In this document: one piece after another, positions 3,257 through 60,937 of the stretch
Layout of the letters: each line of letters starts with the position of its first letter
How positions within the stretch are numbered: the first letter of the stretch is position 1
Source of the DNA: Anaerolineales bacterium
GTDB lineage: Bacteria > Chloroflexota > Anaerolineae > Anaerolineales > Villigracilaceae
Direction: 5' to 3'
Assembly (NCBI GenBank): GCA_034433295.1
Contig: DAOUAS010000019.1
Coordinates: 3,713-67,712, forward strand
Length of the DNA: 64,000 nt
Program-made: the position numbers and the translations under genes
Notes under the pieces: generated by a model
What the model was told of the DNA's origin: nothing
Database searches by the model: none
The model's input: only the letters and a program-made list of their open reading frames with translations

Positions 3257-3262
3257 AACTTC

Positions 3263-24623: not shown

Positions 24624-24626
24624 TTT

Positions 24627-26198: not shown

Positions 26199-26200
26199 CA

Positions 26201-33598: not shown

Positions 33599-35845
33599 TT
33601 AATCGTCTTCCGATGGTGATACGCCTTTTTGCGGGATGATTTCAACGCGCGTGACGCCCAAAGCGCGCTTTAGTTCCTCAACCGCCGTCCTCACCATTTC
33701 CTGCGGGTCATTGGTACTGCGGATCTTGGTGGTGATGTCTGTTACGAGACGTTCACGCGAGGCGCGCGCGGATGTTTCCTCGAAAAGCCGGGCGTTATCC
33801 AACGCAAGACCGAGGCGTTCTGCGACCGCCCGCACGATATTGACTTCATCGGTTCTCCAATGCCTGCCCCCGGTGATGGGACGGATATCGAGGGTTCCGA
33901 TTGTCTGATTGCGCAATTTGATCGGGACAGTCAATGCGCCGTTTTCATTTGCATCCGGAAGTTCGTCCCTGGCTTTGTTTGCGGTGATGACCTGTCCGCC
34001 GGTCAGGGTTTGATGATAGCCAACAATGCCGGAGGCAGACTTCTTTTGCCACGAATCGGCAAGATATTCCCGGAAGATGGATTGCGATTCTGCGAGAGCC
34101 TCCTGAGCCTCCTGCAATAGGCGGACATTGTCAATGGAGATGGCGATTTGGTCTGCCAGCAGACTGAGGGTGGAGATATCCGTGTCGGTGAAGGCGTTTG
34201 GAACAGTGCTTTGCACGTCCAATGCGCCGATGATCTTGCCGCGCGCGGTGAGCGGCAGGGCCATTTCAGCGTGTGTGTCGGGCAGATCGGGGTTGTTGAA
34301 AAACACAGCATCTGAACCGGTATCCAGCGCAATGCGGGGGACACCGGTTGCAGTCACCATGCCTACGATGCCGACCTGTCCGACTTCGAGTTTGTGTTGT
34401 CTGTCCAGCATCTTTTGTCCGCCGGGACTGTTCGCCGCGCGCAGGATAGCATAGTTACCACTTTCGTTGAGAAGGAAGATGCCAACGTGATAGAACCCGA
34501 AACGTTCGCTCACAGCTCGTGTAACAAGAGGAAGGAGGAGTTCCAAGTCCTTTTCTGTCGAAAGGTATTGACCGATTTCTGCAATTGTCCGCAGGTCTCT
34601 GGCGCGTTTTTCGCTTTCCTTCGAAGTCTGTTCGAGTTCGGCGCTGCGATGTTCCAATTCCAAAGTGCGCTGTGCCACCCGGTCTTCCAACTCCGTCACC
34701 AGGTTTTGCAGTTGCCCAGCCATGCTGTTGAACGAATTGGTGAGCAGACCCACCTCATCCTTGGATGGGTTGGACACGCGCTGAGAGTAATCTCCGCTTG
34801 CCATTTTGTCGGCTGCTTCCTGGAGCCTGTGGATGGGCCTGGAAATTTGGTAAGTGGCGAACAAGGCCAATATGACATTGCCGATTATTGCGAAGAAGGC
34901 AAATACGCCGCGTTGATCGGAGATGAGTTGATCCTTTACCACTAACAGATCGCCCAGGTTAACAGCGATGCCGACCACGGCCCGGGTATCTGCGCCGATG
35001 GTAACTGGAGTCAAACCCAGGGCGTGGGGGGCGCCTCCCGGCGTCGTGAACAATTCCCCGGCAACGACCACTTGCCCATTCAAAGCCTGTTCGATGGATT
35101 TTGGCTCCAGCATGTAGGAGGAAAAATACGTCAATCCCGTGGCATCCTCGAAATCGGTGGCAACGATCTCCCCATCGATAATCAACGCCAGGTCGAGGCT
35201 GTGACCGGAAATGACGTTGATCTTCGAAAGCATCTTGTCATCCATCAGGCGGCTGCCGATGACCGCGCCGATCACCTTGCCGGAATTATCATGGACCGGG
35301 GTGGCGACCGAAATGTAGATTTGTTGTGGTTCGTCTCCCATGACAATGCCGCTGGCATTGAAACCCAGCAACGCCAGTTCGAGCAGACGATCTTCTCCGG
35401 CGGAGTTTTCTTCGGATACATCGAACAGCCGCCTGCCCTGGGCGTTTACTGTGTCTACGTCGTCGAAGTCGAGACGGGCGGCTGCAATCAACAGATCGGA
35501 TTGAACGGGCTTGATGTTCCCCCTTGTCAGCGCGTCCAACAACCCCGGAGTGTTGGAGAGCGCCACAGCATTATTGAGCATTTCCCGTTCGATTTCTTCG
35601 AAGCGGATCCGAATGATCTGCGCTTCCTGTTCGACATTTCGACGCCCGGCTTGGATCATGAAGCTATTCATGCCGATATTGGTTGCCAGAACCATTCCAA
35701 GCAACAGGAAACTGAATATCACGAAGACCAGAATGTTCAGCCTCGCGCCCAGTGTTGTTTTCTTGATGAGTTCCAAAAGCCGCATCAGTCTCTGCTCCTT
35801 TGCAGTCATCCAGACTTCGTCAGGACGGCTGCAAAATACGATCAA
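33599..35845 (-). CDS. membrane sensor paralog 1 (TM - extracytoplasmic domain - TM - HAMP - S-helix - GAF - half-GAF - tail), no output domain
   Basis: HAMP SRPIHRLQEAADKMASGDY...DEVGLLTNSFNSMAGQL, S-helix LEDRVAQRTLELE, GAF FGFYHVGIFLLNE...THAEMALPL...IGALDVQS. The start may instead be an internal Met. Confidence 0.85.
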   Translation of the reverse strand: MIVFCSRPDEVWMTAKEQRLMRLLELIKKTTLGARLNILVFVIFSFLLLGMVLATNIGMNSFMIQAGRRNVEQEAQIIRIRFEEIEREMLNNAVALSNTPGLLDALTRGNIKPVQSDLLIAAARLDFDDVDTVNAQGRRLFDVSEENSAGEDRLLELALLGFNASGIVMGDEPQQIYISVATPVHDNSGKVIGAVIGSRLMDDKMLSKINVISGHSLDLALIIDGEIVATDFEDATGLTYFSSYMLEPKSIEQALNGQVVVAGELFTTPGGAPHALGLTPVTIGADTRAVVGIAVNLGDLLVVKDQLISDQRGVFAFFAIIGNVILALFATYQISRPIHRLQEAADKMASGDYSQRVSNPSKDEVGLLTNSFNSMAGQLQNLVTELEDRVAQRTLELEHRSAELEQTSKESEKRARDLRTIAEIGQYLSTEKDLELLLPLVTRAVSERFGFYHVGIFLLNESGNYAILRAANSPGGQKMLDRQHKLEVGQVGIVGMVTATGVPRIALDTGSDAVFFNNPDLPDTHAEMALPLTARGKIIGALDVQSTVPNAFTDTDISTLSLLADQIAISIDNVRLLQEAQEALAESQSIFREYLADSWQKKSASGIVGYHQTLTGGQVITANKARDELPDANENGALTVPIKLRNQTIGTLDIRPITGGRHWRTDEVNIVRAVAERLGLALDNARLFEETSARASRERLVTDITTKIRSTNDPQEMVRTAVEELKRALGVTRVEIIPQKGVSPSEDD

Positions 35846-35846
35846 T

Positions 35847-36683
35847 TTACGGGGTTGGGATGAACCCGAGCGCCTTTAATTCAGCCTGTCCTTCATCGGA
35901 GGACAACCAGTCGATCAGCGGTTTGATTTCGCTTTCATGTTCCGCCAGATAGCCGATGCCGGCCGAGCCGAGGATGGGGTAGGATGCATTATTTGGCAGA
36001 ATGCCGTTGATGGCAATCGTTTCCACTTCCGCATTTTCGGCCAGCACAGGCGGCAGGGCGGCAATCCCAACCGCTCCCCTTGTGCCTTCCACTGAGAAGA
36101 TCATATCCGACTGGCTGAAGAGAGTTTTGGCTGTTTCAGAAAGGGCTGTTTCGCCTATCATGGCTTTTCGCAATCCCTTTGTGCTTGAGTCGTCCTCATC
36201 GCGCACATACAGGACAAGATCAAGGTTTGCCCCCCCTACCTGGGACCAGTTTGTGACCTTACCCGAAAAGATTTCAGTGATCTGACGTTTGTTCAGACTT
36301 GAAACGCCGGTTACAGAGGGATGAACGATAATCGATTGCCCAATCAGACCCATTTCGTAGTATTTGATGTTTTTGGCGATTTCTTCATCCTTGGGTGGGC
36401 GCGCCATTGCCGCCGCATCCAGCAAACCTTCGAGGATGCCGGTAACGCCGCTGCCGGTGCTGTTGCCGGACATGACTTCGAGTTTATAGCCGGGGGTTGC
36501 CCGTTCAAATGCGGGCGTCAGAACTTCGAGTACGCTTGTAATCGTTCCCGAGCCCGATATCTTCAATACCACCAGCCGGGAGGGCGTTGGGGTTGGCGGT
36601 TGCGAAGAGAAGCCCGCGCACGAGGTTGAGAATAGCGCGCCGGTCAATATCAGAAAAATAAAACGTATATAACGGTTTTTCAT
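35847..36683 (-). CDS. PstS-like (PBP_like_2) periplasmic substrate-binding lipoprotein, orphan
   Basis: Lipobox LFSTSC plus LKISGSGTI and NSTGSGVTG motifs of the phosphate-binding-protein fold. No ABC permease or ATPase anywhere in the window. Confidence 0.75.
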   Translation of the reverse strand: MKNRYIRFIFLILTGALFSTSCAGFSSQPPTPTPSRLVVLKISGSGTITSVLEVLTPAFERATPGYKLEVMSGNSTGSGVTGILEGLLDAAAMARPPKDEEIAKNIKYYEMGLIGQSIIVHPSVTGVSSLNKRQITEIFSGKVTNWSQVGGANLDLVLYVRDEDDSSTKGLRKAMIGETALSETAKTLFSQSDMIFSVEGTRGAVGIAALPPVLAENAEVETIAINGILPNNASYPILGSAGIGYLAEHESEIKPLIDWLSSDEGQAELKALGFIPTP

Positions 36684-39148
36684 TCCAAATCCTTCACGTT
36701 CGTTGCTTGCAGGTTGATGTAAATATCCGCATCATGTAGCAGGTGGCTTAATTCGTTTGCAGTGGTCCGGAGAATGTTTTCGGTGCGGAAAGAAGCGGAA
36801 ATTTTCGAAGCAATATCTGAAATGGCGCGTTCCATTTCGGCGCGCCGGGATGTTTCATCGAAGAGGCGGGCGTTTTCAGCGGCAAGCGCCACCCGCTCCG
36901 CAACGATCTTGATCAAATCGACCCGGTCCTGGCTGACAGGTTCATCCTTTGGAAGTTGAACGGATAGCGAGCCTATTGTCTCTCCTCGCACGATAATGGG
37001 GATGTTGATATCCGAGGCTGTGCCAGTATTCCCCACATCCTCATTTGCCTGCAGGGGAACGGCGCCGGAGACGGAATATCGATACCCGCCAAGTTGTTCC
37101 TCCCTTGTCAACCGTCCCCAGGTTTCACGAACATATTGACGTTGAATGACCTCGAACTCCAGGATCGCCTTTTGCGCCTGGTCGAAGAGACGCGCGTTTT
37201 GAATGGCAAGGCTTACCTGGTCTGCCAGCGCTGATAGGGTTTTGAAGTCTTCGTCGGTGAACGCGCCGACCTCGGTGCTTTGAATATCAAGGGCGCCGAC
37301 AACCTGGTTGCCGGCTTTGAGCGGCAGCGCCATTTCGGAGTGGGTGAAGGGAAGTTCAGGGTTGGTGAAATAGATCGCGTCCTCGCCGACATCGAGCGCA
37401 ATGCGCGGTTTGCCGGTTTGCGTCACATATCCGACGATGCCTTGCTCCCCGATTTTCAACTGGTGTCCGCGGGCGAGCATTTTCATGCCACCTTCGCTGT
37501 TGGCCGCACTAAGGACGGCGTACAGGTCGTTCTTGTCGTTCAGGAAAATTCCCACATGATAAAAACCGAAGTTTTCGCTGATTGTCCTCGAGATTTGAGG
37601 CAGGAGAACCTCGAGGTTGTGGGTGGCGTTGATAACGCGGGCTACGTTGGTGATGGCTTCGAATTGTTTTCCTCTGCGGACACCTTTTTCAAGCGCGTCC
37701 TGCAGTTCTGATGTGCGCTCGGACACCCTTTGTTCAAGCGTGTTGACCGAGCCTTTGATGGCGTCGGTCATTATGTTCAGTGTTTCTGCCAGGATTCCGA
37801 TTTCATCCCGGTTTTTGATCTCCGCTTTTGCGTTGTAATTTCCTCTGCCGATTTCGCCGGCAATGCCTGTCAGGGATTTCAGCGGGGCGGTCAATCGGTT
37901 TCCAATGACAAGCGTCGAAACGGATGCCATGGACAGGATCAACGCCACGAGCAAAACGCTGGTGGTGATGATATTTCTTGTTTCCTGAAGAATCTGGGCT
38001 TTGACTGTGGTTGATTCGAGCAGCAACTCTTCGGACGGCACTGTGATGATCAGGCTGTATCCAAGCGTCGGAATTTGCTGATACGCCACGAATCTCTCGA
38101 CCCCGTTTACATTCACCGGGATCACAATATCGCTGCCGAGGGAGCGTTGTTCCAGTACCTGCCGAAAATCCCCGGAAACTTTTTCCAATTTTGTTTGGTC
38201 TAATATTTCTCCCAGAGACGCCGTTTCTGGCGTGAAGCCAAAATCGCCGTAACCGGCTTCGGGCAGGGCGATCAAGCGGTTCTCGCTGTCGATCAGGAAG
38301 GCGTATCCTGTTTCTCCAATCTTGATCTCGGAAACCAGGCTTGTGATTCTCTCCAGTTGAATATCCATGGCCGAAACGCCCTGAAATTTTCCGCCGCCGT
38401 CGAAGACCGGTACGCTGGCTGTTATCACCAGCCCGTTCAGCGCCGCATCCTGATAGGGCGCGGACCATACCACACTTTGATCGGGGTTTTGCCCCGGCGA
38501 TGCCGCAACATACCAGGGGCGTCCGGTTACATCGAAGTCTGCCGGCACGATATTTGCTAGGTCGATGTTGGGGAAGTAGATGGTTTCCTTGAACGTCCCC
38601 CCGAAATAGACAGCGATGATGTCGGGGTTGTCCTTGAGAATGGAAGGCACGATCAACTCGGTTTGCTTTATCACATTTAGTCTAGAGGTAAATTCATCCG
38701 TAAGTTCGGCGCCGGCGGGTATGAAAACCGAGGCGGTCTCCGAATTCGGATTATCCCATGCCCCGGCGGGTGTTTGGACAAGGGCTTCCTTTGCATTCCA
38801 ATAGATTCCGCTATTCAACCTGGATTCCCCGGCGAACATTTGTTTTTCCGTTTTGCCCAACATGGAAATGTAATCCCTCATCGACTCGAAAAAGACATTA
38901 AGGATTGCGGCCTGTTCCCGGCTGGTGGTCTGGAGTTTCTCCTCTGCCTTGTTGCGAACGCTCGATTCGAGCTGGGCGGTCAGGACTGCGTTTGATTCCT
39001 GCGTGCGAAAATAAACGTAATAACCCATGCCCACAATGGACGCAAAGGTGATCAGTAGGTTGCCCAGGATCAGTTTGGCGCGCAAGTTCATGCGGCTGAA
39101 GGGCATTTTTCGGGTGTTTCCAGGTTTAGACGAACGAAGCATGCTCAT
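36680..39148 (-). CDS. membrane sensor paralog 2 (TM - dCache - TM - HAMP - S-helix - GAF - half-GAF - tail)
   Basis: dCache_1-like GRPWYVAA...LVITASVPVFD..GKFQGVSAMDI...GETGYAFLIDSENRLIA, HAMP RDEIGILAETLNIMTDAI, S-helix LEQRVSERTSELQ, GAF FGFYHVGIFLNDK. Confidence 0.88.
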   Translation of the reverse strand: MSMLRSSKPGNTRKMPFSRMNLRAKLILGNLLITFASIVGMGYYVYFRTQESNAVLTAQLESSVRNKAEEKLQTTSREQAAILNVFFESMRDYISMLGKTEKQMFAGESRLNSGIYWNAKEALVQTPAGAWDNPNSETASVFIPAGAELTDEFTSRLNVIKQTELIVPSILKDNPDIIAVYFGGTFKETIYFPNIDLANIVPADFDVTGRPWYVAASPGQNPDQSVVWSAPYQDAALNGLVITASVPVFDGGGKFQGVSAMDIQLERITSLVSEIKIGETGYAFLIDSENRLIALPEAGYGDFGFTPETASLGEILDQTKLEKVSGDFRQVLEQRSLGSDIVIPVNVNGVERFVAYQQIPTLGYSLIITVPSEELLLESTTVKAQILQETRNIITTSVLLVALILSMASVSTLVIGNRLTAPLKSLTGIAGEIGRGNYNAKAEIKNRDEIGILAETLNIMTDAIKGSVNTLEQRVSERTSELQDALEKGVRRGKQFEAITNVARVINATHNLEVLLPQISRTISENFGFYHVGIFLNDKNDLYAVLSAANSEGGMKMLARGHQLKIGEQGIVGYVTQTGKPRIALDVGEDAIYFTNPELPFTHSEMALPLKAGNQVVGALDIQSTEVGAFTDEDFKTLSALADQVSLAIQNARLFDQAQKAILEFEVIQRQYVRETWGRLTREEQLGGYRYSVSGAVPLQANEDVGNTGTASDINIPIIVRGETIGSLSVQLPKDEPVSQDRVDLIKIVAERVALAAENARLFDETSRRAEMERAISDIASKISASFRTENILRTTANELSHLLHDADIYINLQATNVKDLE

Positions 39149-41982
39149 CCCTGCGATTCCTTACTTTCATTGCTGTTCTTTAGTTGAAGGACAACATTCG
39201 ACCCGGGCATAATGCGTCCCAACTCCTCCACCGCTGTTCGCAATACATTTTTGAGATTGGCGGCTTCGCTGATCTTGCCTGTAATATCGCCGAGGGTTTG
39301 TTCCCTGGCGGCTTGACGCTGGGCCTCTTCGATCAGGCGGGCGTTATCCAGGGCAATTGAAAGGCGCTCACATACTGTTTCAGCGAGATTGATTTCGTCG
39401 GCGGACCATTCGCGATTTTTAATCGGCGCCTTGATATTAATGCTTCCGATAACCTGCCCACGGAGTTTAATGGGCAGGACAATGGAGGCTTCCTGGGTGA
39501 TGCCGTCTGCGTGGAAAATCAAGACTTCACCGCGTTTCATGGTCTGTTCAATTTCATCTGATTTAACCGCCCTGGTTATTTTTTGTCCGCTGGTTATATT
39601 TTGACGGTAGCCGACAAAACCCTTTTGTCGGCTGAATACCTTCCAGCCCTCCTGGATGTTTTGGCGGTAAAGCGCCTGTGCTTCATTCAAAGCCTGCTGT
39701 GTCTGAGCAAAGAGCCGGGCATTTTCCAGCGCAATTGCGATCTGGTCTGCAAGAATACCGAGAGTGCTGGCGTCGTTTTCGGTGAACGCTCCCGCCCTTT
39801 TACTTTGCACGTCAAGCACGCCCACCAGACTATCCCTTACTTTAAGCGGCAGGGCTATTTCCGAGCGTGTTTCTGGCAGGTCGGGATTGTTAAAGTAAAC
39901 TGCATCCTGTCCAACATCGAGCGAAATGCGTGGGTAACCGGATCGGGCAACGTATCCGACGATGCTGTTTTCGCCAAGTTCGAGTTTGTGTCCGCGCTTC
40001 AGCATGTTTTGTCCGCCCGCGCTATTTGAGGCTTGCAGTACTGCATATTGATTCGAATTGTCGACCAGGAAGATGCCGACATGGTAGAAATCAAATCGTT
40101 CGCTCACCAGGCGGGTAATCAGCGGCAACAGGTTCTCGAGTTTTTGTTCGCTGGTGATGATCTTTGAAATCTCGCCAATGGATTGGAGTTCGTTTGCCCT
40201 CCTGATGCTTTGCTGGCGCGAGAGTTCCAGGTCGGCTGTGCGCTCCGCCACGCGTTGTTCCAGCCCGGTTAGTGTCTGGCTCAATTGGCGGGTCATGCGA
40301 TTGAATGTGTCGGCCAAAATGCCGATTTCATCTTTGGTGTTTACTTCGGCTTGCGCATTTAAATCTCCCGAAGTAATTTTTTCAGCGACTTTGGTAAGAA
40401 TACCAAGCGGGGATGTCAGGATTTGCGAAGCCACAAACCCGGCAAGAATGCCGAAGACGACCAGCAGCATCGAAGTGAGCGTATTGGTTTTGTTCTGCTC
40501 CCTGATCGAGGCAAGGTAAGTTTCGGTGGGCTGTTGAACCAGGACAGCCCATGGAAGGTTTTTTAGGAAAACGCCGGCATTGATGGCTTCGGACTGGTGT
40601 AATTCCGAGTAGCTGTAAAAGAATGGCTCCTGTGCAAGATTGTCCATTCCGGCAACAATTGCATCATCTGTTGCCATGATCGCATTTGCCGGAAGCCGCC
40701 CATCTGATTGCAGAGCCACAAATTCTACTTCGCTGAAATCCCTGTATGTTTTGAAGAGGTTATCGCGCTCGCCTGTGTAACCGGTCCGCAGATAGGTGTT
40801 TACGTCGACAACCGATATGATTGTGTCATTTCCGCCCGTATCCAGCGAACGGACAATGGATTGGATGATGGTCCCATAATACTCGATTCTCAACACACCG
40901 ATGGTCTCCCCGTCGAGATTTTTGATTGGCGCGCTAAAGTATATGCTTGGCTTTTTCCCGCGAAATGTGATGTTGGACACATAAGGCAGACCGCTCTTCA
41001 TCGGCCGGGTGAAGTGGGTGAACATGGATTCATCCCTGCCCGTGTAGTCTTCGAAGGTGTCCAGGACATCCATCCCGTTTGAATCCAGGACGGCGATCGA
41101 GCGAATGAAGACCGGGTTCTTGCGCGACAGGAACAGCAAGGCCTGGCTTGCGTTTTTTTCCTCGCCGGGCTGGGACGGAGGCTCAAGATATTCGATCAGC
41201 GAAATTTGCTTTGCGTCTGCGTGTATGGCATCCGTTTGGGCGTTGATGAAATCATCGAGCGTGTCCGCCGCAATGTTTGCGAGTGCGGATAATTGTGCTT
41301 CGCTTTGCCTTTGCAGCGCCGCCGTCGAATACCGGCTGTTAATGACGCTCAGCGCGATGAGCGGAACGATTGTGATGAGAATGAAGGCGATGACAATCTT
41401 GGTCTGGAGGGTGTATGACCTGAAGTTCCTTAGGATAAAGAAGGCATACACAACGGATATTGCCCCGGCTAGGATATTTGTGTAAGTGGGGTCGTTGGGC
41501 AGGCTGGCGCGGGGTAGATATAGGTCGACCAAAATGACAAGGACAGTAATGATGAATGCGCTGACGATTGCGCGCCTTGCCAGCATAGGAGGAAGTGCAA
41601 TGGAGGAAATGCCGGATACAAGGACGAGGATGATAATGGCAAGCCCAAGCCCCTGTCCATAGGCAAGGAAAGGCAGCATACAGGATAAAATCAAAAGTGC
41701 CGCAATTAATATGCCGATGCCCTGTGTGGCGCGCCCGCGTGAAACTTGCAGGGCGCTTGTGAATGCCGCCGCAGATGCAATTCCTGTTATTAGAATTCCC
41801 CACAAGCCGGCCAGCCCATTTTCATAATAGGCAACCGGGGTCAGGATCACGGTGATCACCAGGAATAAAACGCCGGTGATCAGGCTGATCACTAATGCGT
41901 TTTTCCTGCGGGCTTCCTCTTCTGATGATGCGGGCGGGCGATTGGCTGGGTAATCCATATAGGTTCTCGTCTTGTTTGGCAA
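39145..41982 (-). CDS. membrane sensor paralog 3 (about 6 TM - extracytoplasmic domain - TM - HAMP - S-helix - GAF - half-GAF - tail)
   Basis: Long polytopic N-terminus, HAMP SPLGILTKVAEKITSGDLN...KDEIGILADTFNRMTRQL, S-helix LEQRVAERTADLE, GAF FDFYHVGIFLVDN. Confidence 0.88.
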   Translation of the reverse strand: MPNKTRTYMDYPANRPPASSEEEARRKNALVISLITGVLFLVITVILTPVAYYENGLAGLWGILITGIASAAAFTSALQVSRGRATQGIGILIAALLILSCMLPFLAYGQGLGLAIIILVLVSGISSIALPPMLARRAIVSAFIITVLVILVDLYLPRASLPNDPTYTNILAGAISVVYAFFILRNFRSYTLQTKIVIAFILITIVPLIALSVINSRYSTAALQRQSEAQLSALANIAADTLDDFINAQTDAIHADAKQISLIEYLEPPSQPGEEKNASQALLFLSRKNPVFIRSIAVLDSNGMDVLDTFEDYTGRDESMFTHFTRPMKSGLPYVSNITFRGKKPSIYFSAPIKNLDGETIGVLRIEYYGTIIQSIVRSLDTGGNDTIISVVDVNTYLRTGYTGERDNLFKTYRDFSEVEFVALQSDGRLPANAIMATDDAIVAGMDNLAQEPFFYSYSELHQSEAINAGVFLKNLPWAVLVQQPTETYLASIREQNKTNTLTSMLLVVFGILAGFVASQILTSPLGILTKVAEKITSGDLNAQAEVNTKDEIGILADTFNRMTRQLSQTLTGLEQRVAERTADLELSRQQSIRRANELQSIGEISKIITSEQKLENLLPLITRLVSERFDFYHVGIFLVDNSNQYAVLQASNSAGGQNMLKRGHKLELGENSIVGYVARSGYPRISLDVGQDAVYFNNPDLPETRSEIALPLKVRDSLVGVLDVQSKRAGAFTENDASTLGILADQIAIALENARLFAQTQQALNEAQALYRQNIQEGWKVFSRQKGFVGYRQNITSGQKITRAVKSDEIEQTMKRGEVLIFHADGITQEASIVLPIKLRGQVIGSINIKAPIKNREWSADEINLAETVCERLSIALDNARLIEEAQRQAAREQTLGDITGKISEAANLKNVLRTAVEELGRIMPGSNVVLQLKNSNESKESQG

Positions 41983-41984
41983 GT

Positions 41985-42953: not shown

Positions 42954-42967
42954 CGGTTTCGCTTGTA

Positions 42968-44908: not shown

Positions 44909-44941
44909 TGATACTCCTTTGAAAATCCTTGCGGGGGAAAT

Positions 44942-46660: not shown

Positions 46661-46718
46661 ACGGACAACCTGTCCAAATTTTGGTGTACTTTCTCTTTAA
46701 AGATATTGTATAGCATGT

Positions 46719-49064: not shown

Positions 49065-49069
49065 AATAC

Positions 49070-52641: not shown

Positions 52642-52677
52642 AAAACGCCTCTTTGTCTTCTATCGTTCATCTTGAAA

Positions 52678-54348
52678 CTACCTTGGCTTGAGCGAACCCG
52701 TATTTTTTCTTGCCGAGGCGCCCTCTGCCTGAAGCGATCCAATTGCTATTTCAGCCTCCTTGAGGTCGAATACCCTGCGTAATTCGGTTGCGGTGGTGCG
52801 CAGAACAGATTCTATGTCAAGGGTCTCGCGAATGTGGGCGGAGATACTGGCAATCACCTGGTCGCGCAAGGCGCTTTTCTGTGTTTCGTCCACCAGGCGG
52901 CTGTTTTCGATTGCCAGAGCCACTTGATCGGCCACTTTTTCCACCAAAACGCGTTCCCGTTCGGACCATGTGATCGATGAGCCTTTCCTTTTCAGTATGA
53001 TCTTTCCAATCTGTTGTCCATGCAAAACCAACGGAATACGGAGTCCGTGTTGATCCTCCTGTCTGTTGCTCGCAAAGATTGGACGCACCCCGGCTGGGGT
53101 GTATTGAAAAGCCGGTTTGTGACGGCTTGTAAACTTTGTCCAGGTTTCGCGTGTTTGGACGGATGTGTTCAATTCCAGTTGACTTACCAGGTTTTTGGTC
53201 TCGTTGATCAGACGGGCATTATCCAGGGAGATTGCCACAAGATCGGCAAGCGTTTGCAATACCTCTGCATCCTGCTCGGTAAAGGATTTGGGCTGGTCTG
53301 AATGCATGTCTAATATGCCGATTATGTTGTTGCGCACGGTCAATGGCAGGGCCATGCGCGAACGTGTGAGCGGAAAATTGGCGTCGCGAATAAAGTTGAC
53401 TTCGTCCACATCCGACGCAATGTAGGGGGTGTTGTGTTCGATGACCCTGTAGGCCAGATTAAACCTGTCCGGTTCTATGCGGTATCCCTGTCCGATGAGT
53501 TTTTTTGCGTCTTGTGAAGACGCCGCCTGCAGATAGGCGTGTTTTTTCCTTTCGTCCAAAAGATATAAGCCCACATGATAGTACCCGAAATATTCAGAGG
53601 TTAGATCCGTGGCGGTTTCGATCAATTGAGAGACATCCTGTATTTCCGCAATCGTTCTGGATATGGATGCGGAGGAGCGTAATTGCGCGGTTCGAGAGGA
53701 TAGTTCCTCCGTGCGCTCGATTACCCGGCTTTCCAGCCGGGCCCGTTCGTTCGCAAGCGACTGGACCGTGTTTTGCATGTCTGTTGTGACATCTGAAAAC
53801 GCCTTTTTGAGGTGGCCAACCGCAATGACGATGATCGCGCCGATAATGGAAAAACCAACGACATATTCAACCCAATCGAGCCATGTGATTTCCAGTCTGG
53901 GAGAGAGACTGGATTGACGGATGCCGAGTTGTTGCAGTAGAGCGACCGCGCCAATTGTGAAAACGCTGAGCGCAAAGGCAGCTATGTCGACTCGCTGTTC
54001 GAATAACAAGGCGGCCAGAACTATGAATGCGATGAAAAAAACGCTTCCGTCAAACCAGGGACCCCAGCTCAAAATGTTGTTTGCGCCAACGGCATATGTG
54101 ATAAAAAGCAAAGTATAGGCGCGCGCCAGATATTTTGTTTTTAATACGGTCACCAATAACAATGCAAAATAAAGGGAAATGAAAAGCGCGCGTTCGTTTG
54201 TAGAAGATGTGGGAAAGAGAAATAAAATGGCCGCAAATCCCAGAATGCAAGCAATACGGAGAGTGACGGTGACGAATCCGTCCCGCCGGCTTTGATAATC
54301 GAGAGCGCCCGATACAGGCACGGTTGGTATGTTATCCATTATCGTCAC
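52678..54348 (-). CDS. membrane sensor paralog 9 (about 6 TM - S-helix - GAF - half-GAF - tail)
   Basis: S-helix LESRVIERTEELS, GAF FGYYHVGLYLLDE...TRSRMALPL...IGILDMHS. Confidence 0.85.
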   Translation of the reverse strand: MTIMDNIPTVPVSGALDYQSRRDGFVTVTLRIACILGFAAILFLFPTSSTNERALFISLYFALLLVTVLKTKYLARAYTLLFITYAVGANNILSWGPWFDGSVFFIAFIVLAALLFEQRVDIAAFALSVFTIGAVALLQQLGIRQSSLSPRLEITWLDWVEYVVGFSIIGAIIVIAVGHLKKAFSDVTTDMQNTVQSLANERARLESRVIERTEELSSRTAQLRSSASISRTIAEIQDVSQLIETATDLTSEYFGYYHVGLYLLDERKKHAYLQAASSQDAKKLIGQGYRIEPDRFNLAYRVIEHNTPYIASDVDEVNFIRDANFPLTRSRMALPLTVRNNIIGILDMHSDQPKSFTEQDAEVLQTLADLVAISLDNARLINETKNLVSQLELNTSVQTRETWTKFTSRHKPAFQYTPAGVRPIFASNRQEDQHGLRIPLVLHGQQIGKIILKRKGSSITWSERERVLVEKVADQVALAIENSRLVDETQKSALRDQVIASISAHIRETLDIESVLRTTATELRRVFDLKEAEIAIGSLQAEGASARKNTGSLKPR

Positions 54349-55999
54349 CTATTGATACTTCGATGTCGACCTCCGAAGCCTCCAGGGCGCGTCCCAGTTC
54401 GCGGACTGTTGTTTGAAGGATGCTGTCCATTGTTGTGGAGGCCCAGATTTTTGCCGTGATTTCGTTTGCCAGTCTCTCGCGTATGGCGACGGACTGACTG
54501 TCTTCCACCAGGCGCGCGTTCTCCAGGGCGAAGGCGGCCTGGGTGGCGATGGATTCTACAAGTTTTTTTTGTTCAGGCGTCCACGTTTCCGGGTTGGACA
54601 TTTCAATTTGTCCTATCACCTGTTCGCGCAGGGATAACGGAACTCTAAGTTCCTGTTCATTGCCAAGGTCCATGCTGCCAAGCGTATACTCATAACTTTT
54701 TTCCGACGCAAGGGACTGCCAGACCCCGTGCAGGTATTGTTCCTGGGTTGCGCTCATTTCACGAATGCTTTGTTGAGCTTCGTTGAACAGTCGGGAGTTT
54801 TCGAGTGCGATTGCAACCTGGTGCGCCATGTTCTGGTAGGTATCTGCGTCCTGTGTGACGAATGTATTTTCCTTCGACGAGTGCATTTCCAGGGCGCCGA
54901 TGACACGGTCGCCAACGACCAGGGGGGCTGCGACTTGCGAGCGGGTGTATGGAAGTAACGGGTTATCCGTCCGCGCAAGTTGTTTGGTTGCCGAAATCTT
55001 ATGCCATGCCTCCGTGTAAAATGTTTCGGGGCGATTATCAGATTGGGTGGATTCCTGATTGGTGTCCGCGACAATATAGGTTTGCTTGGCGCGTATGACA
55101 GTGCTTACCGGTCCCCTGCCATTAATATCCACGTGATGTTTGTTTTCAAGCAGTAATTTGCCGGCCTCTCCGGTTGCTGCCTTTAGTTCGGCCCACTGTC
55201 CTGAGGCATCGACCAGATAGATGGCGGTGTAGTAACATTCGAACTCGTCGCCTATCAAATGCGCGGCGCGAGTCAAAAGCGCGTCGGGGTCGAGGATGGC
55301 TGTAATCATGCGCCCGATTGCATTAACCTTCTGCATCTGCCGGGTGCGTTCGATCACCCTTCTTTCAAGGTTGTTGCGTTCGTCTCTAATGAGATTGAGA
55401 TTCGAATCGATTTGTTTTTGCGATTCGAGAAAGGCATTTTCGAGACGTTGAAACCCCAGGATCACAAGCACCCCGACCATGATAACCATGAGAGAGCCGG
55501 TTATCCAGTCCAGAATGACGGCCTTGGAGGTGAAAGGAGCAATCGGGGATATCGTATTGCTCAACATCAGCCATCCGGTTGTGGCGGTGGTGAGAATTGA
55601 TACTGCGATTGAAATGATCCCGGCGCGGGGAGAAAGGAGCAATGTCGCAAGTACAATTGCGGATATGAAGAAGAATGTGCCGTCTCCCAGGATGCCATAC
55701 CTAAGCAGTTCTGCCACTCCCAATGCGTAAAAACTCAGGAGGAAAACGCTGATGCGGATGGCATACGAGAATTCTATAACGGTAACAATTCCCGTTAACA
55801 CAAATGCCGCGATAAATATTGCCTTGAGCAGGTTGCTTTCACTGGCGCTGTTGAGGGCGGGTATCAAGACTCCAAGCCCCATCGCAAGCGCAACGAGCAG
55901 GAGCGGCATGACAAATCGCTCGCGCCAGTTCTTATATAACAGGCGGGTTGCCTCCGCGGGATTGGAAGGTGGATTTAAGGAAGAATTGTTTTGGGTCAT
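54332..55999 (-). CDS. membrane sensor paralog 10 (about 6 TM - S-helix - divergent GAF with an insertion - half-GAF - tail)
   Basis: S-helix LERRVIERTRQMQ. GAF FECYYTAIYLVDA...(about 40-aa insert)...TRSQVAAPL...IGALEMHS. Confidence 0.82.
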   Translation of the reverse strand: MTQNNSSLNPPSNPAEATRLLYKNWRERFVMPLLLVALAMGLGVLIPALNSASESNLLKAIFIAAFVLTGIVTVIEFSYAIRISVFLLSFYALGVAELLRYGILGDGTFFFISAIVLATLLLSPRAGIISIAVSILTTATTGWLMLSNTISPIAPFTSKAVILDWITGSLMVIMVGVLVILGFQRLENAFLESQKQIDSNLNLIRDERNNLERRVIERTRQMQKVNAIGRMITAILDPDALLTRAAHLIGDEFECYYTAIYLVDASGQWAELKAATGEAGKLLLENKHHVDINGRGPVSTVIRAKQTYIVADTNQESTQSDNRPETFYTEAWHKISATKQLARTDNPLLPYTRSQVAAPLVVGDRVIGALEMHSSKENTFVTQDADTYQNMAHQVAIALENSRLFNEAQQSIREMSATQEQYLHGVWQSLASEKSYEYTLGSMDLGNEQELRVPLSLREQVIGQIEMSNPETWTPEQKKLVESIATQAAFALENARLVEDSQSVAIRERLANEITAKIWASTTMDSILQTTVRELGRALEASEVDIEVSIGDDNG

Positions 56000-58900
56000 C
56001 TCGAATCTTCCTTGTCGGGCATGGGATTAATTTGCACTTTTGTGTAGCGCGCTCCGGTGAGTCTTGTTAATTCATTGGCCGTTGTGACCATGATGGATTG
56101 AATGTCTGTCGACCGGCGTATCTTGCTGGTCACTTCATAGATCAGGTGGTCGCGTTCCGCCTGGACGCGTATCTGTTCCACCAGACGCGCGTTGGCAATG
56201 ATGGCGGCAAGGCTTCCGCCAAGAGTGCCGAGCATTTCCTCGTCGTTTTCGGTGTAGGCGTCCACAATTTCGCTTTCGACATTCAACACCCCCAACAACT
56301 CATTGCGATAGGTGAGCGGAACTGCCAATTCTGAGCGCGTATTCGAACTGACCATGATGTAGCGCGGGTCCTCCTCTACATTTTTGATGCGAAGCGGGCG
56401 TTTGTGGGCTGCAACCCATCCAGTGATTCCTTTCCCTATCGGCACTTCCACGCGCGAAATGTTTTCGGCGTAGCCCGTGGAGGCCTTCGCTTCAAGGGCG
56501 TTCTTCTCTTCGTTTAAAAGCAGGATGGTGACGCGGTCACCGCCCAGCGTTACCTGTAGTCCGTCCACTGCGCTCTCCAAGGCCTCCTCCAGTGTCGTGC
56601 CTGATGCCGCGGTGCTGGTGATGTGATGCAACAGGCGATGCTGGGATAGGTGCTCCTGGGTTTCGGAGAACAGTTCCGTATTGACCACGGCAACAGCCAT
56701 CTGATCTGCCAGGATTTGGAGGCTGCGCAATTTGTCCTCTGTGAAAGCGTAGGGCAGGGTGCTTTGGACATCTATTTCACCCAGAATGCGCTCCCCGACC
56801 TTCAATGGAAAAGCCGCTTCCGAACGGGTGTTGGGGAAAAGTGGATTTGTCTGGTAGGTGGCATCTCTGGCTATATCATTCACTACCAGGGGTTCGCCAT
56901 TGCTGCTTACGAAGCCGACGATGGATTTGGACCCAATGCCGATTTTGTATCCCGTGCGTTTCAACTGGGCGCCCGCTTCTCCGGTTGCTTCGCGAACCAC
57001 TGTAAACTCTCCCTGCAGGTCATGAAGATACACCGACGCATGATAAAAGTCGAATCGTTCCCGAATGAAATTGACGGCCTTGATCAATAACTCGTCGAGA
57101 TTGAGCGAACCGCTGATGTCGCGCGCGATCTCGGCGGCGGTTTCAAGTTGAAGCGCCTTCTGCCTGCTTTCATCCAGCAGGCGGACATTGTGAATGACAC
57201 CCGCCACCTGCCCGGCAATGGTGGATAGGAATTTCAAATCATCGTCGTCGAAGGCATGTTCTTTTTCGGCGTCCTGCACGACCATGACGCCAATCGGGCT
57301 GTTTTGTACAAGCAAGGGCGCGCCCATCCATGAACGGATTGGTCTTCCTGCGGGCTTTACCCCTAATTCGACCATTCTTTTTTCGGCATTTTCCAAAATC
57401 ATGAGCGGCTGACGCGTGCGGACCAGGATCGATGTTAGCCCTTCACCCAAAGTTTGCGACCCGGATGGGGAAATCTTCCCGCCCTCATAGTTGAATGTAA
57501 CATTCAGCGTATTGCTTTTCTCGTCGTAGAGCGCCACTGTCAGGTTGTGGTCGCCGATCACCAGTTGTATTTTTTCGAGGAGATTCAAATGGAAGTTTTT
57601 GAAGTCCGATGAAGTCGGCATCGTTTCGTTGATCGAAACAAGCGCTTCGACCTCACGCAGGTGCTTTTCCGTTTGCTTGACAGCTTCCATTTTTCCCAAC
57701 GCAATGGACATCAGATCTGACAGATTGACGTAAGGCTGAACTGCGGCGCTGGAAAGACTCTGTTCCGCTCCGCCAAGCATCAAAATGGCGGCCAATTCGC
57801 CTCCCTTGCGTATCGGGAAAAAGGCCGCGCTCTCCAGGTTTATTGCTTGCATGAAATTTTTTAACGGGACCGGAAGCGTTTCGCTGGCAGGTGTGGCAGG
57901 CGCTTCACCCTGAAGCAGGTAAGTCTCGATTTCTTCCATATCTGCTTCGATGGTTTCCGGCATGGGGGGGGGGGCTGTTTTTGCGTAGTTTGCAGGCTGG
58001 ACTATCCTGAGGGTTTCGTCCTGGACACGAAGGATCGCCGAGTGAAAGGAGGACTTTCCAAGAATAAGGTTCCCGACTTCGAAAATTTCCTGTTCCGTAT
58101 CTGCTTTCGCAATCAGCCGGCTTGCGCGATAGAGATGAGAAAGTTCTTCGAAGTTTACCTGACTCGTTTCGGCCAAACCGGCCGCCTGAATGGCTGTTGC
58201 AATCTGATTGGACAACATGTGCAGTGTTAAGGCGGTTTCGGGGCTAAGCGGGTTGTCCTCTGTGCTTTGGACATCCAGTACGCCTAGCACCAGGGTGCCC
58301 ATTGAAATCGGAATGACCGTTTCGGAATGGGCATTGGGAAGTGGTTCTGATTGCAGGTTGAGCGCGTCATCCCGCCCTTTATATAGCGTATGCGGCTGGT
58401 TATGGGTACAGACCCATCCGATCAACGTTGCCGGGTCTATCGCCAGACGGTTTTTCCGTGGAGGGGGTTCTCCAAAACCGGATTTGAATTCGGCATACCC
58501 GCCGCTCCGGTCCACAATATAAATGTTTGCCTGGAGGAAGCCGAATTGTTTGACGAGTAATTCGACCGTTTTTTCGAATGTCTGGTTCAGGCTTGCGGTG
58601 TCTGTGATATTCCGGGTTACTTCTGCTGTGGTGCGGATGTGGCGCTCCCCTTCATCCACCTTGTGTTCGAGCGACCGGTATAACTTGCCAAGTTCGTCCG
58701 CCATTTGATTGAAGGAATTGGCCAGGACGCCGATTTCGTCGTTGCTTTTCACTTCGGCGCGGCGGCTCCAATCCCCGCTGGTAAAACTATGTGTGATTTC
58801 TGAAAGGGCGCGCAACGGTTTAACAACGCGATTAATTCCAATGATCAACACCAGTCCCATTGCCAGAAGTGTGAGCAGGGTTAATATGGACGTAAAGGGA

Positions 58901-59850
58901 AGCAGGCTGGAAATCTCCCCATAGATGTCGCTGGACTTCACTTGAAGCACCACGCCCGTTTGCATTTTGGGAAACCATCTTAGTTGGGCAAGCGCATTCT
59001 CCCCTTCGGTCGATGCGATTTCCAGCGTCCTTGTCGATGGCGCGGACTGGGCGGTTAATTCTGTAAAAACGGCATTGACGGTATCTCGCGAAGCAAATTC
59101 CACGGGTGCGAATCCCCCGGTGGCGGGGTCGCTGTGGATGAATTGACCGTCTGGCAGGACAAAGTACGTGGTTGCCAGCGGCGACAGCCCAGTCAACGGT
59201 TGTGTAAGTTTCTGCAGGCTTTTCTTTTCGGTGATACCCACCAGATACCCAAGCATGGACCCGCGCGCGGTTTTATATGGCTGTGCGGTTATCAGAATGA
59301 ATTCGTTTTCATACAAGGGGGGAATCCCATAAAGAGCGGTCGAAGGATGTTCTTTTGTGGTTCTTTCCAGGATGGAGGCGTCGAATTTCAATCCCTGCCA
59401 CGAGGCTTTACTCGAGATTTTTATGTTTCTGTTCGAGTCCAAGAGGAGAAACTGATTGAAGGAAGGGGCGTCCTCCTGCGTGCCGAGGCTGTTGAATTCC
59501 ACAATGATGCCATTGCGAATCTCGCGGAATTCGCCGCTTTTGGGGTTTGCGTGAAGCGCGAGTTCCGTCAAAATCCTGAAATCACTGCTTTCGAGTAGAC
59601 GATTGAGGTACGTCTCCTTGTTTGCAATTTCGCGCTCAATGGCTTCGATTTGTGTTGCAAGCAGGTGCTGGGATTGGGTAATCGCCTGTTCCTGCAGAAG
59701 CGCGCGGGTGCGGAGGTAGGCGGCGCCCGCCATTAAGGCAAGGGGAATGAAAGTGAATATTAAGAGCGTTCGTACGAGAGTCCCCGCCAGGCTGCCCTTA
59801 AATCTTCTGCGGCTGGTGTCATAAGTGGGCGTCGCTTGAGTGGTTGACAT
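55996..59850 (-). CDS. membrane sensor paralog 11, giant form (TM - extracytoplasmic domain - TM - HAMP - five GAF-like modules - tail)
   Basis: HAMP KPLRALSEITHSFTSGDWS...NDEIGVLANSFNQMADEL. Five successive GAF-like blocks, the fourth carrying the family signature FDFYHASVYLHDL...TRSEAAFPL...LGEIDVQS. Same C-terminal tail type. Confidence 0.85.
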   Translation of the reverse strand: MSTTQATPTYDTSRRRFKGSLAGTLVRTLLIFTFIPLALMAGAAYLRTRALLQEQAITQSQHLLATQIEAIEREIANKETYLNRLLESSDFRILTELALHANPKSGEFREIRNGIIVEFNSLGTQEDAPSFNQFLLLDSNRNIKISSKASWQGLKFDASILERTTKEHPSTALYGIPPLYENEFILITAQPYKTARGSMLGYLVGITEKKSLQKLTQPLTGLSPLATTYFVLPDGQFIHSDPATGGFAPVEFASRDTVNAVFTELTAQSAPSTRTLEIASTEGENALAQLRWFPKMQTGVVLQVKSSDIYGEISSLLPFTSILTLLTLLAMGLVLIIGINRVVKPLRALSEITHSFTSGDWSRRAEVKSNDEIGVLANSFNQMADELGKLYRSLEHKVDEGERHIRTTAEVTRNITDTASLNQTFEKTVELLVKQFGFLQANIYIVDRSGGYAEFKSGFGEPPPRKNRLAIDPATLIGWVCTHNQPHTLYKGRDDALNLQSEPLPNAHSETVIPISMGTLVLGVLDVQSTEDNPLSPETALTLHMLSNQIATAIQAAGLAETSQVNFEELSHLYRASRLIAKADTEQEIFEVGNLILGKSSFHSAILRVQDETLRIVQPANYAKTAPPPMPETIEADMEEIETYLLQGEAPATPASETLPVPLKNFMQAINLESAAFFPIRKGGELAAILMLGGAEQSLSSAAVQPYVNLSDLMSIALGKMEAVKQTEKHLREVEALVSINETMPTSSDFKNFHLNLLEKIQLVIGDHNLTVALYDEKSNTLNVTFNYEGGKISPSGSQTLGEGLTSILVRTRQPLMILENAEKRMVELGVKPAGRPIRSWMGAPLLVQNSPIGVMVVQDAEKEHAFDDDDLKFLSTIAGQVAGVIHNVRLLDESRQKALQLETAAEIARDISGSLNLDELLIKAVNFIRERFDFYHASVYLHDLQGEFTVVREATGEAGAQLKRTGYKIGIGSKSIVGFVSSNGEPLVVNDIARDATYQTNPLFPNTRSEAAFPLKVGERILGEIDVQSTLPYAFTEDKLRSLQILADQMAVAVVNTELFSETQEHLSQHRLLHHITSTAASGTTLEEALESAVDGLQVTLGGDRVTILLLNEEKNALEAKASTGYAENISRVEVPIGKGITGWVAAHKRPLRIKNVEEDPRYIMVSSNTRSELAVPLTYRNELLGVLNVESEIVDAYTENDEEMLGTLGGSLAAIIANARLVEQIRVQAERDHLIYEVTSKIRRSTDIQSIMVTTANELTRLTGARYTKVQINPMPDKEDSR

Positions 59851-59859
59851 TAAAGATGG

Positions 59860-60312
59860 TTAGTTGTATTCCCAGACCGGCTCCCCGCTCAGAATACGGC
59901 GGATTTGATCCGGAAAACGGTCGGGGTCGAGCGGTTTGCCCAGAAAGCCGTCGAAACCGGAATCCTTCGCCTTGGTCATTTGCTCGAGGCTGGCTTCCGC
60001 CGTCACGGCGATAATGGGCACGGTCTTGAAGCGTTCGGATGCGCGGATTTTTTTCAACGCGCCGTAACCGTCTTCGTAAGGCAGGCGGATGTCCATCAGG
60101 ATCAGGTCGAGGCGCGGCAGGGTGTCGGCATATTCCACAACCTCGTAGCCGGAGGTTTTCCACTCGCAGTGGATTCCCAGGTAGCCAAGCATGCGCGCGA
60201 TCAGCACAAAATTCGAAACATTATCCTCGACGACCAGCACAGCCGCATCTTTGGGGATGTTGGGTTTGCGGATGGGTTGGGTGTCGGATACGGCAGGTGT
60301 TTGATCAGACAT
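59860..60312 (-). CDS. single-domain response regulator (CheY-like)
   Basis: VLVVEDN...LILMDIRLPYEDG...IIAVTA...FLGKP. No output domain. Confidence 0.88.
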   Translation of the reverse strand: MSDQTPAVSDTQPIRKPNIPKDAAVLVVEDNVSNFVLIARMLGYLGIHCEWKTSGYEVVEYADTLPRLDLILMDIRLPYEDGYGALKKIRASERFKTVPIIAVTAEASLEQMTKAKDSGFDGFLGKPLDPDRFPDQIRRILSGEPVWEYN

Positions 60313-60883: not shown

Positions 60884-60937
60884 TTGCGGAAACGAGTGGA
60901 ATTATACGCCAGGTGGAAAAGGCATGTCAAGCGAAGC

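Follow-up and report, generated by a model that had tools for sequence, protein, structure and literature searches.

Here we describe a conserved operon of membrane receptors and two-component proteins in a 64,000-nucleotide stretch of DNA from an Anaerolineales bacterium (Chloroflexota; contig DAOUAS010000019.1), referred to below, at its full length, as the window. The operon encodes eleven paralogous membrane sensors that share a GAF-based cytoplasmic cassette and carry no recognisable output domain. They are encoded side by side with a ParA/MinD-family ATPase and a soluble hybrid histidine kinase that holds modules related to the cassette. The reading that we tentatively favour is that the kinase-less receptors control this one shared soluble kinase in trans, as chemoreceptors control CheA. 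The cassette consists of a signalling helix (S-helix), a complete GAF domain (GAF1), a shortened GAF (mod2) and a tail of about 45 amino acids (aa). The receptor genes are named from G1 (33599-35845) through G11 (55996-59850), and all lie on the minus strand. In the list below TM stands for a transmembrane segment.

33599..35845, minus strand: G1, the last sensor of the array; TM, periplasmic domain (weak dCache and CHASE4 matches), TM, HAMP, S-helix, GAF1, mod2, tail
36680..39148, minus strand: G2; TM, dCache_1, TM, HAMP, S-helix, GAF1, mod2, tail
39145..41982, minus strand: G3; seven TM, periplasmic domain (weak dCache match), TM, HAMP, S-helix, GAF1, mod2, tail
42968..44908, minus strand: G4; TM, periplasmic domain of about 165 aa without a Pfam match, TM, S-helix, GAF1, mod2, tail
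44942..46660, minus strand: G5; MASE11, S-helix, GAF1, mod2, tail
46719..49064, minus strand: G6; TM, PDC/dCache domain like that of methyl-accepting chemotaxis proteins (MCPs), TM, HAMP, S-helix, GAF1, mod2, tail
49070..50800, minus strand: G7; four-TM domain without a Pfam match, S-helix, GAF1, mod2, tail
50797..52641, minus strand: G8; TM, periplasmic domain of about 140 aa, TM, HAMP-like segment, S-helix, GAF1, mod2, tail
52678..54348, minus strand: G9; MASE11, S-helix, GAF1, mod2, tail
54332..55999, minus strand: G10; MASE11 (about six TM), S-helix, GAF1 with a 24-aa insert, minimal mod2, tail
55996..59850, minus strand: G11, 1284 aa; TM, periplasmic domain (weak dCache match), TM, HAMP, four GAFs, tail

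The first-pass annotation had proposed eleven minus-strand open reading frames (ORFs) of 555-1284 aa, spanning 33599-59850, and the ORF list holds every one of them with those ends and lengths. It had also taken them for old, maintained duplicates. Where two copies carry the same amino acid, 30-50% of the codons are identical (median 39%), and the stretches coding for FYHVGIF, which had been offered as examples of synonymous divergence, were correctly placed (34475, 37544, 40069 and 49985). Full-length orthologues of each copy occur in other genomes at 68-80% identity (48% for G4), as against 28-47% for the best paralogue within the window. The G1 orthologues in two loci (L002 and L003) are 68-69% identical to it, and the best genome match to G1 is 68%. 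By these comparisons G1-G11 are real duplicates, and they are old and maintained because orthologue identity exceeds paralogue identity. Recent duplication or an assembly artefact is ruled out by the codon divergence together with the orthologues in other genomes.

Membrane segments are predicted in 11/11 proteins by a hydropathy scan, in agreement with their first description as membrane sensors. Either two TM segments flank a periplasmic domain of 130-360 aa, or there are 4-8 TM segments. Residues 29-214 of G3 hold seven predicted TM segments ahead of the periplasmic domain and final TM segment, so that a polytopic part is joined to a periplasmic sensor. Pfam matches to dCache_1 or MCP-like PDC domains are found in G1, G2, G3, G6 and G11, the dCache_1 cut-off of 45 being passed solely by G2 (87.7 bits) and G6 (49.4 bits), while MASE11 is common to G5, G9 and G10. 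The N-terminal halves had been described as unalignable with one another. This does not hold for the proteins with Cache-type matches or for those that share MASE11. HAMP (PF00672) is matched at 44-58 bits, above the cut-off of 25, in G1, G2, G3, G6 and G11, and at 24.4 bits, just under it, in G8; Pfam gives no HAMP match in G4, G5, G7, G9 and G10. A complete GAF is present in all eleven, at 64-200 bits against Pfam cut-offs of 22-29 (PF01590, PF13185 and PF13492). Each sensor has a second, partial GAF stretch, and G11 has four GAF stretches.

No HisKA, HATPase, GGDEF, EAL, HD-GYP, cyclase, MCPsignal (PF00015) or DNA-binding domain is matched by Pfam at E<=0.01 in any of the eleven sensors, whereas the neighbouring kinases match HisKA and HATPase strongly in a like search. 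A hidden output domain was sought with Pfam (all eleven), NCBIfam (G1 and G7), a PDB profile search and Foldseek (the G7 model), and these returned only GAF, HAMP and sensor domains. The NCBIfam matches, to DgcA, SiaA and GepA, are confined to GAF or HAMP segments and fall far under their cut-offs. The absence of a recognisable output domain, claimed in the first pass from the ORF translations, thus survives hmmscan, the PDB profile search, Foldseek, TM prediction, the homologue searches and the survey of Chloroflexota genomes. A literature search returned no paper on the cassette family or the operon, and no close homologue with a described mechanism.

The alignable C-terminal cassette that had been recognised in these proteins covers about 370 columns, with pairwise identities of 26-48% among the eleven. 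The motifs quoted for it are all found (LExRVxERT, FYHVGIF, NPxLPxTRSE, IGxLDxQS and W(T/S)xDE...ALENARL). S-helices are coiled coils of about 40 aa with a central ERT signature, placed between an input and a downstream signalling domain and forming parallel dimers (PMC1592074). Such a helix stands directly ahead of GAF1 in G1-G10, with LExRVxERT or the variants QRT, ART, EKT, NRT and DRS; the motif of G11 is weaker (LEHKVDEGE). The S-helix region is a continuous helix in the AlphaFold2 models of G7 and G10.

The G7 cassette model (39-sequence alignment; mean predicted local distance difference test score, pLDDT, 78) has a long N-terminal S-helix carrying LESRVEART, a canonical GAF at residues 54-201 and a disordered 20-residue linker. 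Its mod2 is composed of strands 223-227, 230-234, 253-255, 264-271 and 274-282 with a helix at 241-249, and is followed by a 46-residue helix (292-337), a further helix (341-356) and a low-confidence end. In the G10 model (pLDDT 83) mod2 is reduced to a beta-hairpin (250-268) and a long helix, and this reduced mod2 has a pLDDT of about 85. A Foldseek search of the PDB with the G7 model returns only GAF domains and tandem-GAF proteins. The best single-domain structures for GAF1 are the PtsP GAFs 3ci6 and 3trc (for 3ci6, Foldseek E 1.2e-9 and a template-modelling score of 0.77-0.85 to the target).

GAF1 does not belong to several well-defined GAF types. The NKFDE motif of tandem GAFs that bind cyclic nucleotide monophosphates (cNMPs) is found in none of the cassettes by pattern search. 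The cassettes hold 0-1 Cys, never at a conserved position, which leaves them without a bilin-binding Cys and without the catalytic Cys of free methionine-R-sulfoxide reductase (fRMsr); the matches to 3mmh and 3ksf are to the generic GAF fold. These defining residues exclude GAF1 as a cNMP, bilin or fRMsr type. Mean-field direct-coupling analysis (DCA) was run on 472 cassettes, a shallow alignment (effective sequence number, Meff, 307). Its strongest pair is formed by G7 residues 118 and 161 (about 49735-49737 and 49864-49866), both within GAF1, with a score of 7.3, almost three times that of the next pair. The pair joins the region of the GIVGYV helix to the IGVLDIQS strand and probably reflects a specific side-chain contact at the GAF1 pocket.

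The tail had been described as a stretch of about 50 aa. It is present, and its nature can be named. In the PDB profile search the last 45 or so residues align with alpha1-alpha2-beta1 of cyanobacteriochrome/phytochrome-type GAFs (8w26, 6oap and 2lb5), and the stretch before them aligns with beta5-beta6-alpha5, the end of the preceding GAF in the same structures. By these alignments the tail is the N-terminal stub of a further GAF, and each sensor ends 45 residues into that GAF. In G11 the GAF before the tail is complete, yet the same stub is still present. Over the 472 cassettes the tail holds 2.1-2.5 bits of information per column, compared with 2.5 for the GAF alpha5 helices, 2.9 for GAF1 (the highest value), 1.3 for the variable half of mod2 and 1.2 for the residues past the tail. 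The 80 loci hold 447 complete cassette ORFs that carry a tail, and 75% of these stop no more than 15 residues from the tail match; those that clearly depart from this are orthologues of the two GAF kinases of the window. Judged by its conservation per column and by the many ORFs that end close to it, the stub is not debris.

Pairs internal to the tail are enriched 6.5-11.5-fold among the top 300 couplings, and pairs between the tail and the mod2 strands show no enrichment, a weak negative given the shallow alignment. Because the internal couplings are strong and those to mod2 are not enriched, the tail would form a self-contained helix-helix-strand unit. The last strand is left as low-confidence coil in both AlphaFold2 monomer models. 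A circularly permuted GAF closed in cis by mod2 and the tail is unsupported by the monomer models and by DCA, both of which are weak tests of it.

The array is followed by two genes that bear directly on where its signal may go:

32793..33581, minus strand: ParA/MinD-family ATPase (AAA_31) with a deviant Walker A motif, KGGVAKTT; matches the AAA_31, CbiA and ParA-family profiles
29660..32827, minus strand: soluble hybrid histidine kinase; basic N-terminal peptide, Pro-rich linker, half GAF (83-146), two PAS, GAF (381-592), HisKA, HATPase, two receiver (REC) domains

The kinase is the only one of the operon and has no TM segment in the hydropathy scan. Its GAF at 381-592, which leads straight into HisKA, scores 215.6 bits against the cassette profile, compared with 66 bits for the window's other GAF kinase. 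This GAF is 30-42% identical to the eleven GAF1 domains, within the range of the paralogues among themselves, and it carries the NPxLPxTRSE loop that is near-invariant in GAF1. At the sequence level it is the twelfth member of the cassette GAF family. The second cassette module is also represented: kinase residues 83-146 carry the mod2 hairpin/helix motif, WTxxDE...LSLALENARLFQE. Orthologues of the kinase conserve this half GAF even more strongly than the receptors do (...WATLxVxDE...W[TS]xDExLLVKQVTDQLSLALENARLFQE), and in them it usually follows a Pro-rich linker; a Bellilinea-like subgroup has a different, non-Pro-rich segment between the basic peptide and the half GAF.

Kinase residues 1-23 (32759-32827, minus strand) form a basic peptide, MSKKPKINKRIDNLFKGL, ahead of the Pro-rich low-complexity linker. 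A basic N-terminus of the form M[PS]KK..[KN]RL[DN]xLF is present in 58/60 kinase orthologues by reading of the N-termini (23 by strict pattern match). The ParA-like gene lies between G1 and the kinase gene and overlaps the latter by 35 bp. In general, the partners of ParA/MinD ATPases act by way of a disordered N-terminus that is positively charged (PMC10241942), and the kinase peptide looks like a partner peptide of this kind.

From REC150, a single-domain receiver gene, to a gene for an EamA-family transporter, eighteen consecutive minus-strand genes are separated by gaps of -35 to +58 bp. A second receiver gene, REC131, which the first pass had not listed, overlaps REC150, and the whole tightly packed block, counted as a 20-gene operon, covers 26980-60700. 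The sensor interval first described is the middle part of this unit, whose operon context had been missed. The order is REC131, REC150, G11-G4, SBP2, G3, G2, SBP1, G1, the ParA-like gene, the hybrid kinase, a ThrC-like/REC fusion and EamA, where SBP1 and SBP2 encode solute-binding proteins. A scan of species-representative genomes with G1 returned 469 relatives, and the best 80 were taken as loci, a collection that favours the ParA end of the array. Almost all are labelled Anaerolineae/Chloroflexota (Bellilinea, Longilinea, Brevefilum, Candidatus Villigracilis, Anaerolinea), with one Candidatus Peribacteraceae. Synteny was counted in the 54 loci, from different Anaerolineales species, that have enough downstream DNA. 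The ParA-like, ThrC-like/REC and EamA genes are present in 54/54 and the hybrid kinase in 53/54. Identities across loci are 57-90% for the ParA-like protein and 66-95% for the ThrC-like/REC fusion, which is always followed by EamA. The REC131-REC150 pair heads the array wherever its start is in view, and REC131 orthologues stand at the head in at least eight loci. Sensor number and sensor domains differ between genomes, but the operon frame is constant. Locus L001 keeps the order of G11-G5 among its orthologues, and beyond them it carries further cassette genes and an SBP2 orthologue.

The cassette is not confined to proteins without output. A search with the G7 cassette gives over 4,500 homologues at E<=1e-10, and those listed are of the same length and, if named, are called 'GAF domain-containing protein'. 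The cassette profile matches 22,185 clusters (50% identity) at E<=1e-30, and architectures were read from the best 150, where the best matches are giant multi-GAF proteins, the longest of 3,952 aa, in which the search matched up to 21 GAF stretches. Among these 150 representatives the stub is the end of the protein in 44, while the others run about 200-600 residues further. Two members, P0212 and P0223, are MASE11-GAFx4 proteins ending in the tail stub; other stub-ending members have architectures unrelated to the operon, such as a periplasmic-binding-protein domain followed by PAS and GAF repeats. Two further members carry a kinase part in the same chain: P0124 is dCache-HAMP-GAFx8-PAS-HisKA-HATPase and P0125 is PAS-GAFx7-HisKA-HATPase-REC-REC.

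The remaining genes of the operon, with a candidate promoter, are:

60901..60930, minus strand: candidate sigma-70 promoter, perfect TTGACA-18 nt-TATAAT, about 200 bp upstream of REC131
60305..60700, minus strand: REC131, single-domain receiver of 131 aa that opens the operon; 94% identical to its counterpart at the head of L001
59860..60312, minus strand: REC150, single-domain receiver of CheY-like architecture, 150 aa; Pfam Response_reg 6.4e-21
41985..42953, minus strand: SBP2, lipoprotein-type solute-binding protein of the SsuA/NMT1 family, 2 bp upstream of G3
35847..36683, minus strand: SBP1, lipoprotein-type PstS-like (PBP_like_2) binding protein, 1 bp upstream of G1
27969..29624, minus strand: ThrC-like/REC fusion, a threonine-synthase-like pyridoxal phosphate enzyme with a C-terminal REC domain
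26980..27927, minus strand: EamA-family transporter, last gene of the co-directional block

The promoter is proposed from its consensus alone, and chance would be expected to yield one match of this kind over the region scanned; the candidate sits in the only long intergenic gap near the operon (778 bp to the REC150 start). REC150 is 71-99% identical across 11 loci, far above the sensors. No ABC permease or ATPase is found among the scanned ORFs near SBP1 and SBP2, which are probably ligand-presenting co-sensors for the adjoining receptors. The ThrC-like part scores 261.6 bits to PRK08197, under its cut-off of 303 bits. The fusion and EamA could be a phosphorylation-controlled enzyme/exporter pair, or the enzyme simply a housekeeping ThrC. 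Neither CheA, CheW, CheB nor CheR is found among the scanned ORFs.

The operon frame changes what the lack of an output domain may mean. With a hybrid kinase of the same GAF subtype, a ParA-like ATPase and three REC proteins in the operon, the system is probably not output-less, and the operon kinase together with the homologues fused to HisKA-HATPase turns a 'sensor with no output' into a 'receptor separated from its kinase'. In the mechanism that we propose, the eleven genes would encode dimeric membrane receptors with a variable input and the conserved cytoplasmic cassette. Input would come through a periplasmic domain, of Cache type or other, flanked by two TM helices, or through a polytopic MASE11-type domain, and SBP1 and SBP2 would present ligands to the receptors that they adjoin. 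The S-helix and HAMP would pass the signal from the membrane into GAF1. Many receptors would then modulate one kinase by hetero-association of homologous GAF or helical modules, and phosphoryl groups would move from the kinase to its own REC domains, REC131, REC150 and/or the ThrC-like/REC fusion. The ParA-like ATPase would probably position the kinase, or clusters of receptors and kinase, through the basic N-terminal peptide of the kinase. Every protein-protein contact, the direction of the signal, the role of the ATPase and the ligands are what we infer in this scheme. It is favoured because one conserved operon holds all the parts, because the TM-less kinase shares both cassette modules, because the S-helix and HAMP of the receptors follow a logic that leads the signal from the membrane into GAF1, and because HisKA-HATPase-fused homologues exist.

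Several points weigh against control of the kinase in trans. No HPt (histidine phosphotransfer) protein is found among the scanned ORFs, which leaves the phosphorelay past the kinase incomplete. Operon membership may partly mirror inherited gene order within one bacterial order, and the ThrC-like gene may be a housekeeping gene located there by chance. The loci were collected by similarity to G1, which adjoins the ParA-like gene, so the sample is biased to that end of the array. The kinase has PAS and GAF inputs of its own and could work without the receptors. We know of little precedent for GAF-GAF heterodimerisation between separate proteins as a signalling route, and the structure models are of monomers.

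A more specific form of this contact can be drawn from the two incomplete GAFs. The receptor stub (alpha1-alpha2-beta1) and the orphan half GAF of the kinase (beta5-beta6-alpha5 on a Pro-rich tether) would assemble in trans into a mini-GAF, so that eleven receptors could plug into one kinase through the same invariant socket. The reduced hairpin and helix that form mod2 of G10, which bear on this docking, are predicted as ordered by AlphaFold2. We regard the mini-GAF as a speculative idea with a rather small chance of being right.

Trans-control of the kinase has to be weighed against other readings of the array. The receptors might signal through the conserved stub to some other partner, encoded elsewhere or among the REC proteins, with the kinase co-located through inherited gene order. 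A tail that is strongly conserved and forms a self-contained co-varying unit would suit such a partner, as would the high identity of REC150 across genomes, which is expected of a hub protein, and the finding that 44/150 of the best family representatives end in the tail in quite different architectures. The kinase, the ParA-like ATPase and the receptors are, however, together in 53-54 of 54 loci, both cassette modules recur in the kinase, and fused receptor-kinase homologues exist. We consider another partner unlikely.

The array could also consist of autonomous receptors, in which GAF1 binds a cytoplasmic metabolite or messenger and the output is ligand buffering or inside-out regulation of the domain in the membrane or periplasm. 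Within the cassette, conservation is highest in GAF1, its near-invariant NPxLPxTRSE loop is retained in the kinase GAF, and its closest structures and profiles are metabolite-linked GAFs (PtsP 3ci6/3trc, and weak, partial matches to NifA and PtsP models). The absence of an NKFDE motif and of a conserved Cys speaks against this reading, and an S-helix and HAMP ahead of GAF1 imply flow from the membrane to the GAF. Eleven different sensor domains on one invariant cassette fit many inputs and one output better than a single input with many membrane outputs, and the conserved tail would be left unexplained by buffering. Autonomous action appears quite improbable.

Still less probable, in our estimate, is a spatial role in which the receptors and the ParA-like ATPase organise membrane clusters and the ATPase, not the kinase, is the direct target. 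Filaments are typical of cultured Anaerolineae, and such clusters might be arranged, for example, along them. The gene for the ATPase stands invariably between the last receptor and the kinase, and related ATPases position chemoreceptor clusters in other bacteria, as ParC/PpfA do (PMC10241942). It is the kinase, though, and not the receptors, that carries the kind of basic N-terminal peptide a ParA partner should have, and Cache, HAMP and S-helix modules are built for ligand-dependent signalling and not for scaffolding alone.

That the genes are remnants of histidine kinases without their kinase part, or an assembly artefact, is effectively refuted: the tail does resemble the remainder of a multi-GAF kinase cut just past beta1 of a GAF, but the eleven ORFs are intact and differ in codon usage, their orthologues are conserved and keep the same order in L001, and the tail itself is conserved and ends most ORFs that carry it.

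Trans-control of a shared kinase invites comparison with the MCP and CheA/CheW systems whose arrays are positioned by ParC/PpfA. Both have paralogous membrane receptors with interchangeable sensors (dCache, HAMP) on one invariant cytoplasmic module, one shared kinase, single-domain REC proteins and a ParA-like ATPase in the operon. In contrast to the chemoreceptors, the array lacks MCPsignal, its conserved module is GAF-based, and its kinase is a HisKA-type hybrid and not CheA. The only sensor shared with MCPs is the periplasmic 'MCP-like PDC' (G2 and G6). The resemblance is one of functional analogy only and implies no family membership. True homologues are found in the membrane multi-GAF histidine kinases of the P0124 type, which share the N-terminal logic and the GAF subtype (cassette profile E=0) but differ in that the array proteins stop 45 residues into a GAF and have the kinase part on a separate soluble protein.

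The tandem GAFs of the cyanobacterial CyaB adenylyl cyclases and of the phosphodiesterases PDE2/5/6/10 also consist of two GAFs joined by a long helix, and Foldseek aligns the G7 model with 3lfv, 3mf0, 1ykd and PDE6. Unlike them, the cassette has neither NKFDE nor a catalytic domain, its second GAF is degenerate, and the template-modelling scores over both domains are low, at 0.31-0.37. The GAFs of PtsP (EI-Ntr) and NifA give the best single-domain matches to GAF1 (for NifA, a weak and partial match to TIGR01817); they are 20-23% identical and are N-terminal in soluble enzymes or regulators, and ligand identity is not transferable from them. In the GAF arrays of cyanobacteriochromes and phytochromes (8w26, 6oap and 2lb5) the junction from alpha5 to the next alpha1-alpha2-beta1 matches mod2 and the tail, but there the next GAF is complete, and the cassette lacks the bilin Cys and a PAS-GAF-PHY arrangement. 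RetS and LadS are signalling proteins that act on a separate kinase, GacS, through homologous dimerisation modules. Their action on a kinase in trans resembles the mechanism favoured here, whereas they are themselves kinase-family proteins, occur singly and have no GAF cassette.

Two further regions of the window deserve mention. A divergent two-component cluster (22023-26935, plus strand) encodes a GAF-GAF-HisKA-HATPase kinase, a REC-GAF-HisKA-HATPase kinase and an OmpR-type regulator. The regulator is syntenic on the opposite strand in 44/54 loci and the REC-GAF kinase in 41/54, and the GAF-GAF kinase holds the same junction of a GAF end and the next GAF start as the receptor tail. At 2570-6257 (plus strand) three consecutive ORFs of 228, 485 and 516 aa have no Pfam match, and within this region positions 4001-6000 have an unusually negative GC skew (-0.31) and AT skew (-0.20).

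All of the domains described here are known and the fused relatives are ordinary multi-GAF kinases, so the receptors do not form a new category of protein. The novelty lies in how the parts are put together: output-less GAF receptors in an array that can expand, each with a conserved end in a truncated GAF, next to a soluble kinase of their own and an ATPase of the ParA type, all conserved across a whole order of bacteria. The conserved stub poses a structural question of its own, namely what a GAF that breaks off behind beta1 does. With few partners, whose genes adjoin one another, the system lends itself to direct testing.

Wastewater sludge, anaerobic digesters, sediments and groundwater are habitats where Anaerolineales abound, and to our knowledge their signalling is essentially unstudied. 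With up to eleven or more receptors, different sensors and conservation in no fewer than 54 genomes at the species level, the operon would rank as a major hub of signalling in these bacteria. If the stub and the half GAF of the kinase do dock as a mini-GAF, this would be a new wiring from receptor to histidine kinase that parallels the chemoreceptor array with GAF domains. If the receptors control the kinase in trans, annotations as 'GAF domain-containing protein' can mark the input layer of a two-component pathway, and the operon would represent a second, independently evolved solution to 'many receptors, one kinase', with GAF modules in place of the chemoreceptor hairpin.

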